This document shows, in pieces, positions 22,539-51,797 of a stretch of DNA of 64,000 bases. Where the stretch lies: assembly GCA_030390025.1 (NCBI GenBank), contig CM059425.1, positions 89,776,001 through 89,840,000 on the forward strand, written 5' to 3'. The notes below the pieces were generated by a model. The model was not told the DNA's origin, searched no databases, and was given only the letters and a program-made list of their open reading frames with translations. The translations under genes and the position numbers were made by a program. Position 1 is the stretch's first letter, and every line of letters starts with the position of its first letter. This DNA comes from Squalus acanthias (taxonomy: Eukaryota).

Positions 22539-23287
22539 ATGGAGAGGGTGAGAGAACGCGCTCATCGCTTCACCGAGCGGGCCTTGGATGCTCTGGTTGG
22601 CGCGATGGAGCGCAGAAGATGTATGCTCTTCCCTGAGAGTGGCAGGAGGCCTTTGCCACGCGAGTTCAGAAGAGTGTGGAGGGAGGTGGCTCAGAGCGTC
22701 TCCTCCAGGAGCATGGTGCCCAGGACCCATACTCAATGCCGCAAAAAGTTCAACGACCTCACTCGGGTCGTCAGGGTGAGTGGCTTTTTCTCAATACCTC
22801 TCCATCCCTCCATCTCAACCTCACTCTATGGCCAGAGGGTCTTAAAACCCCAATGCACAACACTCATCCAACACTTATGGCCCTTTCATCAAACACACAC
22901 ACACATTCCACACTTTGCATACAGTAAGGGCTATTCACCTATGGGAGGCACATCAGGCAAGACCATGGCTGTATACAGTAAGGGCTATTCACCTATGGGA
23001 GGCACATCAGGCAAGACCATGGCTGTATACAGTAAGGGCTATTCACCTATGGGAGGCACATCAGGCAAGACCATGGCTGTATATTTACTTAGATGCTGTC
23101 CTTTTTCTTACAGGCCAAGCTGGCGCATAATCGGAGACAGCAGCAACGGACAGGTGGAGGGCGGCCTCAGCTGCAACCCCTCAGCGATCTTGGTGCTGCT
23201 GATGATCATCGTCCACGTCCTCTTCCTCTTCTTCCTCCTCCTCCTCTGGTGGTGCTCCAAGGCCTGGTGGCATTGGCTGGGTCCTGA
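22539..23287 (+). CDS. Harbinger Myb/SANT (trihelix, NAIF1/MSANTD-like) DNA-binding protein; exons 22539-22775 and 23114-23287, 136 aa, probably C-terminally truncated
   Basis: RFTERALDALV...WREVA...RTHTQCRKKFNDL; AGG|GTGAGT donor; ttttcttacag acceptor; in-frame AKLAHNRRQQQRTGGG. Confidence 0.8.
22918..23082. repeat. 54-bp tandem repeat x3 within the Myb-gene intron
   Basis: atacagtaagggctattcacctatgggaggcacatcaggcaagaccatggctgt repeated three times. Confidence 0.9.
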
Positions 23288-25871: not shown

Positions 25872-27412
25872 ACAACAACAACTTGTATTTATATAGAGCT
25901 TTTAACATAGTAAAACGTCCCAAAGTGCTTTACATGAGCGTTATCAAATAAAATTTGACACTGAGCCACATAAGGAGATATTAGGGCAGGAAGCGGTCGG
26001 TTGTTTTAAGGAGCGTCTTTAAGGAGGAAAGAAAGGTAGATAAGTGGAGAGCTTAGGGCCCAGGCAGCTGAAGGCACGGCCGCCAATGGTGGGGTGATTA
26101 AAATCGGGGATGCGCAAGAGGCCAGAATTGGAGGAGCGCAGAGGGTTATAGGGCTGGAGGAGGTTCTTCTCTTAGGCAGCCCCTCGGAACCGAGGATGAC
26201 TTGCTTCCACACTAAAAATGAGTTCTCAGGTGACTGATGAGTCCAATGTGAGACCTATAGTCTCTGTCACAGGTAGGGGCAGACGGTGGCTGAAGGGGCG
26301 GGTGGGTTGGGTGCTTGTGCTAACGTGCGCTCCTTGCGCTGCCTGTGCTTGGCTTCCGCTTGCTCCCGGCGAAGAGATCCGAGGTGTTCGGCGCCTTCCC
26401 AGATGCTTCTCCTCCACTTTGTGCAGTCTTGGGCCAGGGATTCCCAGGTGTCGGTGGGGATGTTGCACTTTTTCAAGGAGGCTTTGAGGGTGTCCTTGAA
26501 GCGTTTCCTCTGCCCACCTGGGACTCTTGCGTGTCGGAGCTCCGAGTAGAGCGCTTGTTTTGGGAGTCTTGTATCGGGCATGCGGACGATGTGGCCCGTC
26601 CATCGGAGCTGGTCGAGCGTAGTCAAAGCTTCGATGCTGGGGATGTTGGCCTGAGCGAGAACACTGTCGTTGGTGCACCTATCCTGCCAATGGATTTGCA
26701 GGATCTTGTGGAGGCAGCATTGGTGGTACCTCTCCAGCGCTTTGAGGTGCCTGCTGTACATGGTCCATGTCTCTGAAGCATACAGGAGGGCGGGTATCAC
26801 TGCTGCTCTGTAGACCATGAGCTTGGTGCTGGGTTTGAGATCCTGGAAGCAGACACCGCGGGACACACTCACTGGAAGGAGACACACTATAAGGAGGTCG
26901 GGACCCAGGAGCGAGGACGGGACCCAGGGACGAGGACGGGACCCAGGGGCGAGATTGAGGCTCAGGAGCGAGATTGAGACCCAGGAGCAAGGACGGGGCC
27001 CATGAGCGAGGTCGAGGCCCATGAGCGAGGTTGGGACCCAGGGGTGAGGACGAGGCCCAGGAGCGAGGACGAGCCCAGCAGCGAGGTCGAGGCCCAGGAG
27101 TGGCGCAGCGTGGACCAGCAGCGAGGTCGGGAGGACCACACTGCAGCCTATGAAACCCAGGCAGAGAGGACTGCGGGAAGGAGGGAGGAGGACAGTAGGA
27201 GTATATTTGTGTGTGTGTGTAGAGGAGGTTACAGGGATAGGGAGGGGGCAAGGCCATGGAGGGATTTGAAAACAAGGATGAGAATTTTAAAATCGAGGTG
27301 TTGCTTAACCGGGAGCCAATGTAGGTCAGCGAGCACAGGGGTGAATGGGACTTGGTGTGAGTTGGGACACCGGTGGTAGAGTTTTGGATGAGCTCAAGTT
27401 TATGGAGGGTTT
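25872..27412 (-). mobile_element. L2 LINE 3' fragment (25872-26165 + 27222-27412) split by an RTE-containing insertion
   Basis: (caa)n tail and L2 3' motifs; GAGGAGGTT duplicated at 26157-26165 and 27222-27230. Confidence 0.8.
26166..27221 (-). mobile_element. RTE/BovB-clade LINE 3' end joined to a GC-rich tandem-repeat leader
   Basis: TKLMVYRAAVIPALLYASETW...QLRWTGHIVRMPDTRLPKQALYSEL...GGQRKRFKDTLK; degenerate ~18-19-bp repeats at 26895-27135. Confidence 0.85.
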
Positions 27413-27648: not shown

Positions 27649-27956
27649 TCATGATGCGGAGATGCCGGTGTTGGACTGGGGTGGACAAAATTGAGAGGTC
27701 GCACAACACCAGGTTATAGTCCAACAGTTTTATTTGAAATCACAAGCTTTCGGAACTATCGCTCCTTCCTCAGGTGAAGTAAATTGGATACAGAATCGTC
27801 AGAGCATATATAGATGGAAAAAAAAGCATGTGTACATATATGCTCTGACGATTCTGTATCCAATTTACTTCACCTGAGGAAGGAGCGATAGTTCCGAAAG
27901 CTTGTGATTTCAAATAAAACTGTTGGACTATAACCTGGTGTTGTGCGACCTCTCAA
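27649..27956. mobile_element. Second truncated Penelope terminal-repeat palindrome (121-bp arms, 24-nt spacer) plus tail
   Basis: Arms 27691-27811 and 27836-27956; CTCAAGTTACAAAG duplicated at 27632-27645 and 27952-27965. Confidence 0.85.
27874..27899 (+). ncRNA. Minimal type-I hammerhead ribozyme-like core (mirror copy on - strand)
   Basis: CUGAGGA-A-GGAGC(GAUA)GUUCC-GAAA followed by GCU-U-GUGA; upstream UCAC can pair with GUGA. Confidence 0.6.
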
Positions 27957-28089
27957 GTTACAAAGCCCATGTCACCACACTATGGGCTGTACAAGCAGGG
28001 CCATTCCTCAGTTATCAGCTTTTGGGGGGGGCTCCAGCTTGGCAATCCCTGGAGTGGGACGATGATCCTGCAGCCTCTGAGCTGAGCCA

Positions 28090-28273
28090 GGCCGCTGGAG
28101 GCCGCTAGCCCCTCACTGGGGCCGGGCCGGGGACCCCGGGCTCCATGGCAACGCGGCGGCCGGAAGTGACGCCTGGCCCGGGCCGGGCCCAGCTCTCTTT
28201 GTGTCCGGGTGCTGTGTCGCTGGAAGTTCGCTGAGCTGTTGTTGGATTTCCCCGCGGCCTCTCTTATTGCGCG
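28090..28273 (+). promoter_or_regulatory. IVD CpG-island promoter / 5' UTR with an RFX-type half site (CCATGGCAAC, 28143-28152) and an ETS/GABP site (CCGGAAGTG, 28160-28168)
   Basis: Sharp rise in GC and CpG immediately before the ATG; motifs read directly. Confidence 0.7.
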
Positions 28274-28441
28274 ATGGCCGCTCTCCGTGCGCTTTGCGGG
28301 CCTACACTGACACTTGCCCGGCAGCAGGCGTCCGCTCGGCTGCAGCCCGGCTTCCGTACGCTCTGCCCCGGTCACAGGCACATGAGCGGTCTGCTTTCCA
28401 TCGACGATGTGGTGAACGGGCTGACCGAGGAGCAGAGACAG
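28274..28441 (+). CDS. IVD: Isovaleryl-CoA dehydrogenase exon 1 (mitochondrial targeting peptide ... IDDVVNGLTEEQRQ)
   Basis: Arg/Ala/Leu-rich leader; matches human DDAINGLSEEQRQ; donor CAG|GTAATC. Confidence 0.93.
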
Positions 28442-29178
28442 GTAATCTCCTGCTAACTAGAGACAGGTAATCTCCTGCTAACTAGAGACAGGTAATCTCC
28501 TGCTAACCAGAGACAGGTAATCTCCTGCTAACCTAGAGACAGGTAATCTCCTGCTAACTAGAGACAGGTAATCTCCTGCTAACTAGAGACAGGTAATCTC
28601 CTGCTAACTAGAGACAGGTAATCTCCTGCTAACCAGAGACATTTAATCTCCTGCTAACCAGAGACAGGTAATCTCCTGCTAACCAGAGACAGGTAATCTC
28701 CTGCTAACCAGAGACAGGTAACCGTCTGCTAACCAGAGACAGGTAACCGTCTGCTAACCAGAGACAGGTAACCGTCTGCTAACCAGAGACAGGTAACCGT
28801 CTGCTAACCAGAGACAGGTAACCGTCTGCTAACCAGAGACAGGTAACCGTCTGCTAACCAGAGACAGGTAACCGTCTGCTAACCAGAGACAGGTAACCGT
28901 CTGCTAACCAGAGACAGGTAACCGTCTGCTAACCAGAGACAGGTAACCGTCTGCTAACCAGAGACAGGTAACCGTCTGCTAACCAGAGACAGGTAACCGT
29001 CTGCTAACCAGAGACAGGTAACCGTCTGCTAACCAGAGACAGGTAACCGTCTGCTAACCAGAGACAGGTAACCGTCTGCTAACCAGAGACAGGTAACCGT
29101 CTGCTAACCAGAGACAGGTAACCGTCTGCTAACCAGAGACAGGTAACCGTCTGCTAACCAGAGACAGGTAACCAGAGA
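28435..29178. repeat. 25-bp minisatellite, ~29 copies, containing the exon-1 donor (AGAGACAGGTAATCTCCTGCTAACY then AGAGACAGGTAACCGTCTGCTAACC)
   Basis: Period 25 read directly; first unit overlaps the exon 1 / intron 1 junction. Confidence 0.95.
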
Positions 29179-29189
29179 TAAGCAACCAG

Positions 29190-29852
29190 AAATACAAACA
29201 GAAAATACTGGAAAACACTCAGCAGGTCAGCAGCATCTGTGGAGAGAGAAAGAGCTAATGCTTCAGGTCGATGATCTTTCATCAGAACTGGAAAAAGTTA
29301 GAGATATATAACAGGTTTTAAGCAGGGGCAGGAACGGGGGGAGGGGAGGAAGGAACAAAAGGGAAGGTCTGTGATAGGATGGAAGGCAGGAGAGATTAAA
29401 ATACAAAAGGGATGATGGTGCAAGGCAAAAGGAGATGGTAATGGGACAAGTTAAGAAACAAAAGATGGGCCTAGAGGAGGAGTAAATGGGAATAGCAGAA
29501 TCATTACCAACAGCTGCTGTCTGGGGGAAAAATGGGAGCGGTGGTTATGATCTGAAATTGTTGAACTCAATGTTGAGCCTGGAAGGCTGTAAAGAGCCTA
29601 ATCGAAAGATGAGGTGCTGTTCCCTTGAGCTTCATTAGAATAGTGTAGGAGGCCGAGGTCAGAGTGGGATGGAGAATTAAAATAACAAGCGACCGGGGAG
29701 CTCGGTCACGCTTGCAGACTGAACGGAGGTGTTCTGTAAAGCGATCACCCAATCTACATTTGATCTCGCCAATGTAGAGGAGACCACATCGTGAGCAGCG
29801 AATACAGTATACTAAATTGAAAGAAGTAGAAGTAAATCGCTGTTTCACCTGA
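29190..29852 (-). mobile_element. Penelope-like element of a second family: GIY-YIG fragment plus terminal repeat with degenerate hammerhead motif
   Basis: FTSTSFNLVYCIRCSRCGLLYIGEIKCRLGDRFTEHLRSV; minus-strand CUGAUGA-A-AGAUC(AUC)GACCU-GAAG at 29261-29285. Confidence 0.8.
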
Positions 29853-29917
29853 AAACACTTTGACTGTGATGCCCATTCACAGCCAAATCGCTTCCTAGCT
29901 AGTCTCACGTGTGATAA

Positions 29918-30950
29918 GAACATAAGAAATAGGAGCAGGAATAGGCCACTTGGCCCCTCGAGCCTGCTCCGCCATTCAGTAAGATCATGGCTGATCTTGG
30001 GCTCAAAGCCACTTCCCTGCCTGCTCCCCATAACCCTTCACTCCCTTATCTTGCAAAAATCTGTCTATCTCCACCGTAAACGTATTTAATGACCCAGCCT
30101 CCACGGCTCTCTGGGGCAGAGAATTCCACAGATTTACGACCCTCTCATCTCAGTTCTAAAAGGGCGACCCTTTATTCTAAAACTGTGCCCCCGTGTTCTA
30201 AATTTCCTCGCGAGGGGAAACATCCTCTCTGCATCTACCTTGTCGTGCCCCCTCAGTATCTTATATACTGTTTCAATAAGATCGCCCCTCATTCTTCTAA
30301 ATTCCAATGAGTATAGGCCCAGCCTGCTCAACCTTTCCTCAAGTCAACCCCCTCATCTCTGGAATTAACTTAGTGAATCGTCTCTGAACTGCCTCTAATG
30401 CAAGTATATCCTTCCTTAAATAAGGAGACCAAAACTGTACGCAGTACTCAAGGTGTGGTCTCACCAATACCCTGTACAGTTGTAGCAGGACTTCCCTGCT
30501 TTTATACTCCAACCCCTTTGAAATAAAGGCCAACATTCCATTTGCCTTTTTGATTACTTGCTGTACCTGCATGCTAACTTTTTGTGTTTCATGCACTAGG
30601 ACCCCCAGGTCCCTCTGAACTGTAGCATTTTGTAATCTCTCTCCATTTAAATAATAATTTGCTTTTTTATTTTTCCTGCCAAAGTGGATAACCTCGTACT
30701 TTCCCACATTATACTCCATCTGCCAAATGTTTGCCCACTCACTTAGCCTGTCTGTATCCCTTTGCAGGTTCTTTGAGTCCTCTGCACATACTTGCTTTCC
30801 CACCCATCTTTGTACCATCCGCAAACTTGGCTACATTACACTCGGTCCCTTCATCCAAGTCATTAATGTAGATTGTAAATAGTTGAGGCCCCAGCACCGA
30901 TCCCTGTGGCACCCCACTAGTTACTGTTTGCCAACCGGAAAATGACCCAT
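29918..30950 (-). mobile_element. CR1 LINE RT 3' fragment
   Basis: ORFs 30339-30824 and 30134-30331 with CR1 RT motifs and 3' UTR. Confidence 0.9.
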
Positions 30951-32030: not shown

Positions 32031-33431
32031 GTCTTGAATGTCAGGACGCCCTCTGCTCTAGTGTAACTGAACATGGAGGAGTGCTCATAGCTCCTGCTTT
32101 TATATTTTATTCATCTTGATTAATATTGTAGGGTGGAAAAAAAACCTGTTTGTTTAAAGGGCTATTATATATAACTTTAAAAAGAGCTTGTTTTTGTGAA
32201 GCGAGTGCTCTGTGATTTAATTTTTTTCCCCTCATCCAGTTGAGTCCTGCGCTCCCCTCCAGCCCCGCCTCCCACCAAACCCATGCACAAAATCTCAATT
32301 CTGGTCTTGCTCCAGGCCTCCACGACTAGTGCTGTGAAAGGTCCTGTCAGGGACTGTACACGAATGGCCTTCAACGACTCACTGTGACTTTCCCCAATGT
32401 CCCTCTGCTCCCCATGGAGAGGCACCTGGCCTCCACTTGGAGTCCCCCTGTCGCAGCACGGCTCCGATTGGGTCCACGGCAGAGCCAACTTGGGAACCGC
32501 ACGTGAAAACCTACATCCCGTCAGCCCACGTGCCTCCACTGTGTGCTGCCTTTGGAATCACCTTTTTAAAACTGGAGAGGCACAAGCACACAATGAGGAG
32601 GGCACAGTGCCAGGACTAGTAATCCTAGTGAGGTGGTTGATTGGGAGAGCTGAGTGATCAGCCTGGACTGGACAGTGAGAGAGGTTGTCTAAGTCAAGGC
32701 GCTGCTTTACATTCTGGAGCCTGCAGGTTTGTTTTCATTGGTTAGGGGCGTGTTGCTGTTTCCAGGCTGCCATTGGCTGGCTGTGGTGAGCTGACCTATG
32801 AACTTTTGTCCACAATGCTGCCATTTTAAGATTACCTTTTGTGTGGAAACAGACTCTGTACCTGTCACAGTTTTCTAATGCAGTTTTCTTAATTTCATCC
32901 CCCCCTCCTCTCCTTCGGTTCCCTATTAAATGAAAGTTCCTTAGCTGCCCTCTGGTTCCCTCCCCAAGTGGCCATTCCTCATGTATTGGCAGACACAAAA
33001 CCTGAGCTAGAGTCCGTAACAGGTTGACGTAATACAGACCCATTTGAAGGAGTGGTCTTTTCTTGTCCATGCTTTATGTTCTCGTCTCGGTCTGGACAGA
33101 GTAGGAATGAGCAAGTGACAGTACATTGTCCTTTCCTTCACTGATTAACTCAGTGGGGTAGATTTGTCATCCTGCCCACCTGGGCATTAAGAATCCTGTG
33201 GGCTGAGTTCAGAAAGGAAAATCTGACGGACAATATTGCACGCCCCTTACAGAGTCTGCTGGATTTCTCTTCCTTTCACTTCAGTGCGATTCTCCCAGCC
33301 AGATTTCCCCCTCTGCACTCCGCACAAACAATAAAGATGAAACTCTACCCCAGTGTCTTATGTTTTCTAAGTAACCTTTAAAACTCCAGAATTGACTCCA
33401 TTGTTTTTGCTTTTCCTTCTTTGCTAATTAG

Positions 33432-33521
33432 CTTCGGCAGATGGTTCAAAAATTCTGCCAGGATCACCTCACTCCCAAAGCCCAGGATATCGACCAGAAG
33501 AATGATTTCCCAGAGTTGAAG
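33432..33521 (+). CDS. IVD: IVD exon 2 (LRQMVQKFCQDHLTPKAQDIDQKNDFPELK)
   Basis: TAG acceptor, GTAAAT donor, 90 nt, phase 0/0. Confidence 0.93.
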
Positions 33522-35302: not shown

Positions 35303-36912
35303 ATGGAGGCAATCTTCCCTCCCTCCTGCCCCATCGTGGAGGCAATCTTCCCTCCCTCCTGCCCCATCGTGGAGGCACCTCCCTCCCTCCTGCCCCATCG
35401 TGGAGGCACCTCCCTCCCTCTAGCCCCATCGTGGAGGCACCTCCCTCCCTCCTGCCCCATCACGGAGGCAATCTTCCCTCCCTCCTGCCCCATCACGGAG
35501 GCAATCTTCCCTCCCTCCTGCCCCATCGTGGAGGCACCTCCCTCCCTCCTGCCCCATCGTGGAGGCACCTCCCTCCCTCCTGCCCCATCGTGGAGGCACC
35601 TCCCTCCCTCCTGCCCCATCGTGGAGGCACCTCCCTCCCTCCTGCCCCATCAGGGAGGCACCTCCCTCCCTCCTGCCCCATCGTGGAGGCGCCTCCCTCC
35701 CTCCTGCCCCATCGTGGAGGCAATCCTCCCACCCTCCTGCCCCATCGTGGAGGCACCTTCCTCCCTCCTGCCCCATCGTGGAGGCAATCTTCCCTCCTTC
35801 CTGCCCCATTGTGGAGGCACCTCCCTCCCTCCTGCCCCATCGTGGAGGCACCTCCCTCCCTCCTGCCCCATCGTGGAGGCACCTCCCTCCCTCCTGCCCC
35901 ATCGTGGAGGCACCTCCCTCCCTCCTGCCCCATCGTGGAGGCACCTCCCTCCCTCCTGCCCCATCGTGGAGGCACCTCCCTCCCTCCTGCCCCATCAGGG
36001 AGGCACCTCCCTCCCTCCTGCCCCATCGTGGAGGCACCTCCCTCCCTCCTGCCCCATCGTGGAGGCACCTCCCTCCCTCCTGCCCCATCGTGGAGGCACC
36101 TCCCTCCCTCCTGCCCCATCGTGGAGGCACCTCCCTCCCTCCTGCCCCATCAGGGAGGCACCTCCCTCCCTCCTGCCCCATCAGGGAGGCACCTCCCTCC
36201 CTCCTGCCCCATCGTGGAGGCACCTCCCTCCCTCCTGCCCCATCGTGGAGGCAATCTTCCCTCCCTCCTGCCCCATCGTGGAGGCACCTCCCTCCCTCCT
36301 GCCCCATCGTGGAGGCACCTCCCTCCCTCCTGCCCCATCGTGGAGGCACCTCCCTCCCTCCTGCCCCATCGTGGAGGCACCTCCCTCCCTCCTGCCCCAT
36401 CGTGGAGGCAATCTTCCCACCCTCCTGCCCCATCGTGGAGGCACCTCCCTCCCTCCTGCCCCATCGTGGAGGCACCTCCCTCCCTCCTGCCCCATCGTGG
36501 AGGCAATCTTCCCTCCCTCCTGCCCCATCGTGGAGGCACCTCCCTCCCTCCTGCCCCATCGTGGAGGCACCTCCCTCCCTCCTGCCCCATCGTGGAGGCA
36601 CCTCCCTCCCTCCTGCCCCATCGTGGAGGCACCTCCCTCCCTCCTGCCCCATCGTGAAGGCAATCTTCCCACCCTCCTGCCCCATCGTGGAGGCACCTCC
36701 CTCCCTCCTGCCCCATCGTGGAGGCACCTCCCTCCCTCCTGCCCCATCGTGGAGGCACCTCCCTCCCTCCTGCCCCATCGTGGAGGCATCCTCCCTCCCT
36801 CCTGCCCCATCGTGGAGGCACCTCCCTCCCTCCTGCCCCATCAGGGAGGCACCTCCCTCCCTCCTGCCCCATTGTGGAGGCACCTCCCTCCCTCCTGCCC
36901 CATTTCATGGAG
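35303..36912. repeat. 31/33-bp C-rich minisatellite (GGAGGCACCTCCCTCCCTCCTGCCCCATCGT)n, ~50 copies
   Basis: Read directly; interspersed 33-bp variant with GCAATCTT; explains the Pro- and Gly-rich ORFs on both strands. Confidence 0.95.
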
Positions 36913-44740: not shown

Positions 44741-44959
44741 GTAACATTTTACGCCGATTCTCATCGGGACCTCCTAATGTTTTTTGGGGGCATTTTGGGC
44801 ATCAGACATTTGTAAATGACAGTCACGTTCTCTTTAACTTGCAGTCATATGAGCTGGGGCTCAGGGATACATCTTTAGTTTGGCCTGCTTTATATCTAAA
44901 ATTTTCCCCTGAGCTTCAAGAGTGAATCTTCGCCAGGTGTTGTCCCACGGAGCTTCTGG

Positions 44960-45110
44960 AGCTCACGGCTGGGCGTGGTGATCAGGGGTCCCTTTGTCGA
45001 GCTCAAGGCTGGGAGCGGTGATCAGGGGTCCCTTTGTCGAGCTCAAGGCTGGGAGCGGTGATCAGGGGTCCCTTTGTCGAGCTCAAGGCTGGGAGCGGTG
45101 ATCAGGGGTC
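44960..45110. repeat. 40-bp tandem repeat, ~3.7 copies
   Basis: gctcaaggctgggagcggtgatcaggggtccctttgtcga. Confidence 0.9.
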
Positions 45111-45993
45111 GCCATGTGGAGCTCGTTGCTGGACGTGGTGACCGGAGCTGCTAACCCCCATCGCCCCCCCCCCCCCCCCCCAACCCTTGTATTGAGAGGC
45201 CTTTGACCTAAGGAATGAGCTGCCTGGTAGAGCTTGCATGGTAAGCAGATTCGCTCGTGATGAGTGCCTTATCTCTCCCATCCTGTGGGGGCAAAGTGCT
45301 TTCTTGCAAAGAGAAAGGGATATATTTAGAGGGTTAGTCAATCTGGAGTGACTCTTTATCACCTTGTAATAACCAGCTGTAGAGTGGGACTGACTGAGGT
45401 ATAGGAACAAGTTCTCTGTAAGCACTCTGCTGGAAATTCTAAGTTACAGGGGTGCAGGTGGGGAGTAAAAGATGGTTTTATAAAAAACATACAGCATGCA
45501 CCAGTGACAGGAGACATTTGGTTATATGGGGCATTCCTTATTCACGTTCATCCAGCCAGAAAGACCCCATCAGAATATCCTGCTGTTCCTTAAATGATTC
45601 TAGGTTTTTTGCTTGAACTACCTGGGGCTCCATTCCAAATGTTGTGAAGAGGATTAATACAGAATGTTGAGACACAGCTCCTGTGTCCCTGGCATTAACA
45701 TACAGACTGGCTCAAGCACACACAGCTCTTGTGCTGCTGCTCATGCCACACTCCCTTGTGCCCAGTCTATCAGCCTTGTATTTCCAGTGTTGTACTGGGC
45801 TGACTTTGAACTGTTCTGAGCCCAGGAACAAGAAATTGATTTTTTTCTGCACCCTGCCAAACAGGGCAGATAGACCGAGCCAATTACTGCAGGGCTGTTT
45901 ATAATCATCTACCGGCTTTCTTCACCTATGTCTTTGCTCTAGTGTGTCTCAGATACAATTGTCTGTCCAAGCAGCCAGAGTTCGTAACATTTA

Positions 45994-48933: not shown

Positions 48934-49169
48934 GTAAGGAAGTACCTCCTCTGCCTTCCCATTGATCGTGTACCTCGTCCTCTTAACAAACGCTTGACGT
49001 TCTCATCTGAAAGGCACTATTTCAATGCAGGTAAGTAGTGTTCTCAGTCAGTGGTGTCTCAGATCTGAACTTGGTACTATTAGTTTCTGCTCCGAGATCC
49101 AGTGTGAACATGGCTGTCGTGGGTTATACTGTCTTTATATAATTACTGCATGAATGAAGCAGACACCAC

Positions 49170-49255
49170 TGACTGTAGGAAACTTTGACCCAGACGCCAG
49201 TGATTGTAGGAAACTTTGACCCAGACGCCATTGATTGTAGGAAACTTTGACCCCA
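49170..49255. repeat. Short ~31-bp tandem repeat x3
   Basis: tgtaggaaactttgacccagacgcca repeated. Confidence 0.8.
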
Positions 49256-51526: not shown

Positions 51527-51797
51527 GAGGATTGGGTTCCCATTCAGTGAGGGGTGGGAGCTCTAGGGATGGAGCATTGGTTCCCATTCAGTGAGGGGTG
51601 GGAGCACGAGGGATGGAGGATTGGGTTCCCATTCAGTGAGGGGTGGGAGCACGAGGGATGGAGGATTGGGTTCCCATTCAGTGAGGGGTGGGAGCTCTAG
51701 GGATGGAGGATTGGGTTCCCATTCAGTGAGGGGTGGGAGCTCTAGGGATGGAGGATTGGGTTCCCATTCAGTGAGGGGTGGGAGCACGAGGGATGGG
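51527..51797. repeat. 45-bp minisatellite, ~6 copies
   Basis: gaggattgggttcccattcagtgaggggtgggagc(tcta/acga)gggatg. Confidence 0.92.

Follow-up and report, generated by a model that had tools for sequence, protein, structure and literature searches.

Tandem repeats that span an exon/intron boundary and carry copies of its splice donor into the intron have been described in several genes. In human F7, intron 7 carries a 37-bp minisatellite that was studied with 50 constructs, in which 1-12 units left donor choice unchanged (PMC1557585), and the same report cites 6-16 intron 2 (25 pseudo-sites), CBS intron 13 (15-20 units), LMNB2 and PDGF intron 4. Intron 18 of human ABCA7 harbors a VNTR with a 25-bp unit and about 24 copies in the reference, which includes the exon-18 donor; retention of one unit amounts to about 2%, introduces a premature stop, is subject to NMD and is independent of length (PMC5954066). 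The amphioxus 'mirages' of Adh3 and the globins have units of 10-160 bp and are also found at acceptor ends (PMC3087553). More generally, a catalogue lists 9,537 human repeats linked to splicing (PMC10078293), and recursive splice sites with a pyrimidine tract have been described in mouse introns over 51 kb (PMC8797253). Our literature search, which left subscription journals mostly outside its coverage, found no paper pairing isovaleryl-CoA dehydrogenase with a minisatellite, and the enzyme goes unmentioned in the 20 papers listed of 816 from a broader search. What is new here is one further locus, in the gene IVD, of this already described class of donor-spanning minisatellites.

The window (the whole stretch of DNA analysed, 64 kb) contains 12 IVD exons within positions 28274-56836, which give an intact 431-aa frame. 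The coding part of exon 1 (28274-28441, + strand) starts with an ATG at 28274, has 56 codons, ends in phase 0, and aligns to residues 8-51 of human IVD with the same EEQRQ end (E 0.03); it is predicted to encode a mitochondrial targeting peptide and the start of the mature enzyme. The transcript starts by about 28199, as an RNA-like contig of 28199-28441 is joined to exon 2. Exon 2 (33432-33521, + strand) corresponds to residues 52-80 of human IVD (E 1.6e-5), its acceptor ends in TGCTAATTAG, and intron 1 has a length of 4,990 nt. The authentic exon-1 donor, CAG^GTAATC (28439-28447, + strand; the caret marks the cut, after 28441), is used in nine of nine partly aligned raw reads and in a contig of depth 217. 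The protein alignments and RNA reads thus bear out the claim of a first-pass annotation of this DNA that the first repeat unit is the real IVD exon-intron junction.

Starting at this junction, a 25-bp minisatellite (28434-29173, + strand) extends into intron 1. Tandem Repeats Finder reports 29.6 copies with 98% matches at 28433-29173, and our own parse gives 30 unit starts (28434 to 29160), namely, 29 full units and one 14-nt partial unit, in line with the roughly 29 copies annotated before. Each unit joins the terminal 8 nt of exon 1 to 17 nt of intron 1. The GT is kept at 29 of the 30 unit starts, always as CAG^GTAA, so that the annotated repetition of the donor in nearly every unit holds, and 28 of the 29 spare donors are intact. 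The exception is unit 9 (28635-28659, + strand), which reads CAT^TT and is the copy near 28640 already reported to lack the GT; unit 4 has 26 nt. The units fall into a proximal block (28434-28709, + strand) with 11 units of the GTAATCTCC type, 10 of them with the GT, and a distal block (28710-29173, + strand) with 18 identical full units of the GTAACCGTC type plus the 14-nt partial unit, close to the earlier counts of about 10 and 19. The order of the two types is perfect, with P 3.7e-8 against shuffled units, a value that shows polarity only because units are not independent. Between the array and the adjacent retroelement, the partial last unit recurs as a degenerate 14-nt sequence (29174-29187; 11 of 14 letters alike, GT lost).

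The window is rich in such repeats, with eight minisatellites making up 6.4% of its length. A larger one, C-rich on the + strand, lies in IVD intron 2 (35316-36903; 31 bp x 50.6), and the six others, at 1-842, 22919-23083, 26894-27100, 44959-45124, 49160-49253 and 51527-51796, have periods of 35, 54, 19, 40, 31 and 45, respectively; three of these six fall in IVD introns. By a rough estimate that assumes 150,000-250,000 donors, 650-1,100 donors per genome would lie inside the first unit of such a repeat by chance.

Reading through donor 1 in frame adds VISC and ends at a TAA (28454-28456, + strand; codon 61), as had been annotated. The further claim that any downstream donor places a premature stop in the mRNA holds for plain read-through, but not for splicing from donor 1 to an internal AG and then from that unit's donor to exon 2, which would add an in-frame 6 nt (RQ); no such product was seen among the reads. 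An in-frame stop occurs early, within 2-26 codons, in 11 of the 11 IVD introns. We rejected the stop as a designed poison signal, given that all 11 introns stop early and that the 25-nt period shifts the frame, and also rejected a coding role of the array, whose + strand frames are open for at most 16 codons and whose - strand frames are also interrupted.

We examined six of the 24 sequencing runs listed, in which no holder of the sampled words is recorded as RNA. In X22, a run of raw single-cell RNA reads of which about 26% was read against 27950-28478, 14 reads fell on this interval; nine of them were partly aligned, all nine leaving at 28441, and one ran unspliced into the array. Use of donor 2 (28466) was found in none of the nine exon-leaving reads, from material in which NMD was not blocked. 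Were donors 1 and 2 used equally, this result would have P 0.002, and the upper 95% bound on downstream donor use is 28% (n=9, if the reads are independent; they may include copies of one molecule). The consensus of the leaving reads equals exon 2 for 25 letters. In X1, a contig joins 28441 to exon 2 at a depth of 216.7, while array contigs have depths of 3.6-33 and the single-copy array end has 5.3, about 2% of the exon 1-exon 2 contig; this array-end contig runs unspliced through the last donor. X1 behaves as RNA, with the promoter and the unique intron showing no depth. The mapping of RNA junctions proposed in the first-pass annotation, done here without an NMD block, thus gave 28441 in all nine leaving reads and in the X1 contig, and donor 2 in none. 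This dominance of donor 1 comes from a small sample, distal type A donors lie under the likeness limit of the read alignment, and the contigs (Logan) drop weak branches, so that a leak of a few per cent would escape them. Searches from the array end to exon 2 in X1, X2, X23 and X24 were swamped by retroelement reads, with an exon-2 depth of only about 3-4 in the raw runs; the output covered 15 of 111 joints, with no array-to-exon-2 joint among them, and 24 of some 2,930 loose ends. No joint inside the array was listed among the X22 and contig alignments, whose depth is too low for rare intermediates.

The spare donors pair with the 5' end of U1 at -8.0 to -8.1 kcal/mol, equal to donor 1 and within the range of the gene's 11 donors (-5.7 to -11.5 kcal/mol). 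Since the spare donors are as strong as donor 1, position rather than strength must decide between them, as in F7. Hairpin folds for donor masking were computed without shuffle controls and are not used as evidence.

The array is a locus-specific minisatellite whose first unit lies across the boundary of IVD exon 1 and intron 1. We consider it probable that the first donor is the one used, as in the RNA reads seen, and that the other 28 serve as silent, near-neutral spares. The array would have originated by local duplication across the exon 1/intron 1 junction and grown through unequal exchange or slippage, with the block of 18 identical units as its latest expansion. As the F7 experiments suggest, the spliceosome would commit to the most upstream of identical donors, and the array would be removed with the intron. 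Growth into the intron is tolerated because the first donor stays in place. Occasional splicing from donor 2 or 3 would lead to the stop at codon 61, and hence to clearance by NMD or to a useless 60-residue peptide; stops so near the start codon can partly escape NMD. The broken unit 9, the 26-nt unit 4 and the variant units of X1 and organism B (below) are signs of turnover rather than constraint. Together with the donor-1-only splicing in the reads seen, they support the suggestion, made in passing in the first-pass annotation, that the array could be neutral. Among the points that count against this explanation are the 28% bound left by the nine reads, the mixed loose ends of those reads (below), the two pseudo-donors used in 6-16 and CBS, the 28 of 29 intact spare donors, though homogenisation alone predicts them, and a likeness between unit junction and true acceptor (below) that plain local duplication does not explain.

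The reading that competes best with a near-neutral array takes its length to set, as a heritable dial, the amount of productive IVD mRNA, acting either through leak to downstream donors (codon 61 stop, NMD) or through skipping of exon 2 or of exons 2-3. The equal strength of the spare donors and the differences in unit sequence among samples fit it, and in ABCA7 a 25-bp donor-containing VNTR raises next-exon skipping 3-4-fold with length (PMC5954066). A hint of exon 2-3 skipping, which would be out of frame, comes from the nine X22 loose ends, whose agreement is only 0.72; at letters 26-30 they give ACACC instead of the GCCAG of exon 2, so that about two to four of the nine donor-1 reads may go elsewhere than exon 2. 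The start of exon 4 (41754) fits these letters at four of five, the best of 11 exon starts. However, this fit concerns five consensus letters, and two shifted exon 2 registers fit equally well. As for leak, donor 2 appears in none of the nine reads, the F7 units could be varied from 1 to 12 without change, and the one-unit retention in ABCA7 is length-independent. On balance, we regard a length dial as unlikely; the array would matter more if its length changed IVD output.

The remaining splicing hypotheses concern the signals inside the unit. The first-pass annotation had pointed to a branch-point-like CTAAC followed by TAG or CAG acceptors. The motifs are indeed present, but a T-rich tract is lacking and the branch-like A stands only 5 nt from the junction AG, which is the start of the exon's own Arg codon and opens the next unit. 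The internal AGs have 3-5 T in positions -20 to -4 (8-9 Y in 17), versus 6-13 T in the 11 real IVD acceptors, none of which is as T-poor. Two further AGs precede each internal one, and the internal AGs are no better than 123 decoy YAGs of intron 1. We rejected the branch-point-like motif as significant, for it is a single independent instance, and YTRAY is found in 11% and CTAAC in 0.5% of unique-intron 17-mers.

The proximal-block junctions TGCTAACTAG/TGCTAACCAG (within 28434-28709, + strand), on the other hand, resemble the true exon-2 acceptor. TGCTAACTAG at 28451-28460 matches TGCTAATTAG at 33422-33431 in nine of 10 bases, a level reached by 14 of 9,169 other YAG sites (0.15%), while the other ten IVD acceptors match the proximal junction at 2-6 of 10. 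This match was noticed post hoc and the likeness ends at 10 bases, so that it is a lead only. It would fit a scenario in which the units are collapsed copies of both ends of intron 1 (donor, last 10 acceptor bases and 6 exon bases). The array would then be a series of donor and acceptor decoys, and its length would vary between sharks and determine exon 2 inclusion versus skipping. We judge this to be very unlikely. If it were true, an array of self-miniaturised introns would act as a heritable dial on leucine breakdown, and derivation of the unit from both intron ends would be an unusual way of seeding such arrays. In array-less orthologues, CTGCTAAC directly after the donor would mark the acceptor match as chance, and its presence at the acceptor only would mean that the unit was fused from the two ends of the intron.

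Along similar lines, each unit might work as a miniature intron 1, a donor fused to a copy of the acceptor end, that permits stepwise splicing or inclusion of the in-frame 6-nt mini-exon (RQ). Beyond the same nine-of-10 match, each junction AG has the preceding unit's branch-like motif 30 nt upstream of it, and introns of 69-195 nt from donor 1 would be possible. Yet the match is post hoc and nothing similar is found upstream of the 10 bases, and the internal AGs, T-poor and preceded by two other AGs, look like ordinary decoy YAGs. No joint in the array was listed, the mini-exon register agrees with the X22 loose ends at only two of five letters, and intron 1 is far shorter than known recursive introns. 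We therefore hold this to be highly improbable, and the recursive splicing raised in the first-pass annotation is not supported, given the missing T-rich tract at the internal AGs and the 4,990-nt intron.

Downstream, the array is separated by 15 nt from a high-copy retroelement fragment (29189-29870, right end approximate, - strand), which we take to be Penelope-like; it gives a GIY-YIG hit with E 0.04, below the Pfam cut-off, and has 4,882 candidates in the genome. It is followed by a decayed LINE 3' fragment (29914-30950, - strand), presumably CR1-like, with an RVT_1 hit of E 1.7e-5, likewise below the Pfam cut-off, and with a read pile-up and loose ends. Intron 1 also contains dispersed duplications, at 31840-32030/32614-32804 (191 nt at 88%) and, both at 86%, at 30952-31017/31373-31438 (66 nt) and 29860-29917/31319-31376 (58 nt). 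In X1, a contig of depth 5 (29110-29254) continues past the last donor and reaches the A-rich end of the element, while the unique intron beyond 30958 shows nothing; this RNA may stem from internal priming, from early termination or from nascent transcripts. U1 snRNP is known to keep nascent transcripts from being cleaved prematurely at poly(A) signals, and 29 promoter-proximal donors might load it and so shield nascent IVD RNA from cleavage at retroelement poly(A) signals. The position of the array, less than 1 kb from the transcript start and directly before antisense retroelement fragments, would suit such a role, as would the seven AATAAA/ATTAAA hexamers in intron 1 and the low-depth X1 RNA that runs through the array into its flank and ends before the unique intron. 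However, the hexamers are not unusually dense, the array is young as well as variable, and oligo-dT priming at the A-rich end of the element, or nascent RNA, would explain the X1 pattern equally well. A protective function of this kind thus appears extremely improbable to us.

A genome-wide search (3.7 Gb) for the exact unit pattern placed 28 of 28 matches inside the array, with none for the control. No array was found at the matching end of 24 other copies of the flanking retroelement (0/24), so that seeding of such arrays is not a general property of the element. With the unit absent elsewhere in the genome and from these copies, we rejected a dispersed satellite or an element-borne repeat; the array is specific to the IVD locus and arose in place. 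DNA contigs of X3 (organism A, at least 99% alike and probably the window's species) and of X2 (organism B) both stop at 28463, where the repeat begins, and short multi-copy unit contigs are present in the public runs X1, X2 and X3. The array therefore occurs in independent samples and is older than the split of two close organisms. Over 512 letters, the X2 contig of organism B shows 6 differing letters and 4 gaps; organism B is a sister organism, the two having the array in common, in altered form. In a single contig of depth 19, organism B's last full unit is 3 nt short at 29147. The penultimate unit in a 161-nt X1 contig over the array 3' end shows 3 differences to type B, compared with 4 for the window's type A. 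In exon 1, a T>A difference between samples at 28357 is found in X1, X2 and X3 and is absent from X22 (3 reads), while substitutions at 28331 and 28384 occur in organism B only.

It is barely credible that assembly error produced the array or the long block of identical units in it, for although the best word share of any listed run is 0.61, none of the records seen spans the array and the X1 contig over its 3' end carries a unit unlike the window's type A, the X2 and X3 contigs break exactly at the repeat start 28463, all three runs hold multi-copy unit contigs, and private variants such as units 4 and 9 are atypical of collapse or inflation, which confines the doubt to copy number.

The IVD array belongs to the donor-spanning minisatellites of the F7 type, or mirages: its first unit spans the boundary, the donor is reiterated, the repeat is locus-specific and the most upstream donor is dominant in the small sample of reads. 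As in F7, where only the most upstream donor is used, the first IVD unit spans the exon/intron junction and identical pseudo-donors follow; F7, in contrast, has 5-9 copies at an internal exon and 50 constructs behind it, whereas IVD has about 30 copies at a first exon and nine reads (PMC1557585). The array shares its architecture and similar copy numbers with 6-16, CBS, LMNB2 and PDGF, but 6-16 and CBS use two proximal pseudo-donors, whereas the IVD reads seen use none (as cited in PMC1557585). With the ABCA7 VNTR it has in common a 25-bp unit containing the donor; unlike the IVD units, those of ABCA7 are C-rich and start with the GT, and their length was shown to raise next-exon skipping (PMC5954066). 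The units resemble vertebrate recursive splice sites in carrying AG^GT in a first intron, but differ from them in lacking a pyrimidine tract, in not being AGGTAAGT and in lying in a 5-kb intron (PMC8797253). Like the mirages, which belong to cephalochordate genes, the IVD array reiterates an exon/intron boundary; mirages are tandem boundary copies that are unstable, homogenised inside and divergent at their ends, with no splicing interference reported (PMC3087553). The IVD array could serve as a polymorphic marker or as a natural test substrate, and among these systems it extends the rule that the most upstream donor wins to a first exon, to 28 equal competitors and to a cartilaginous fish.
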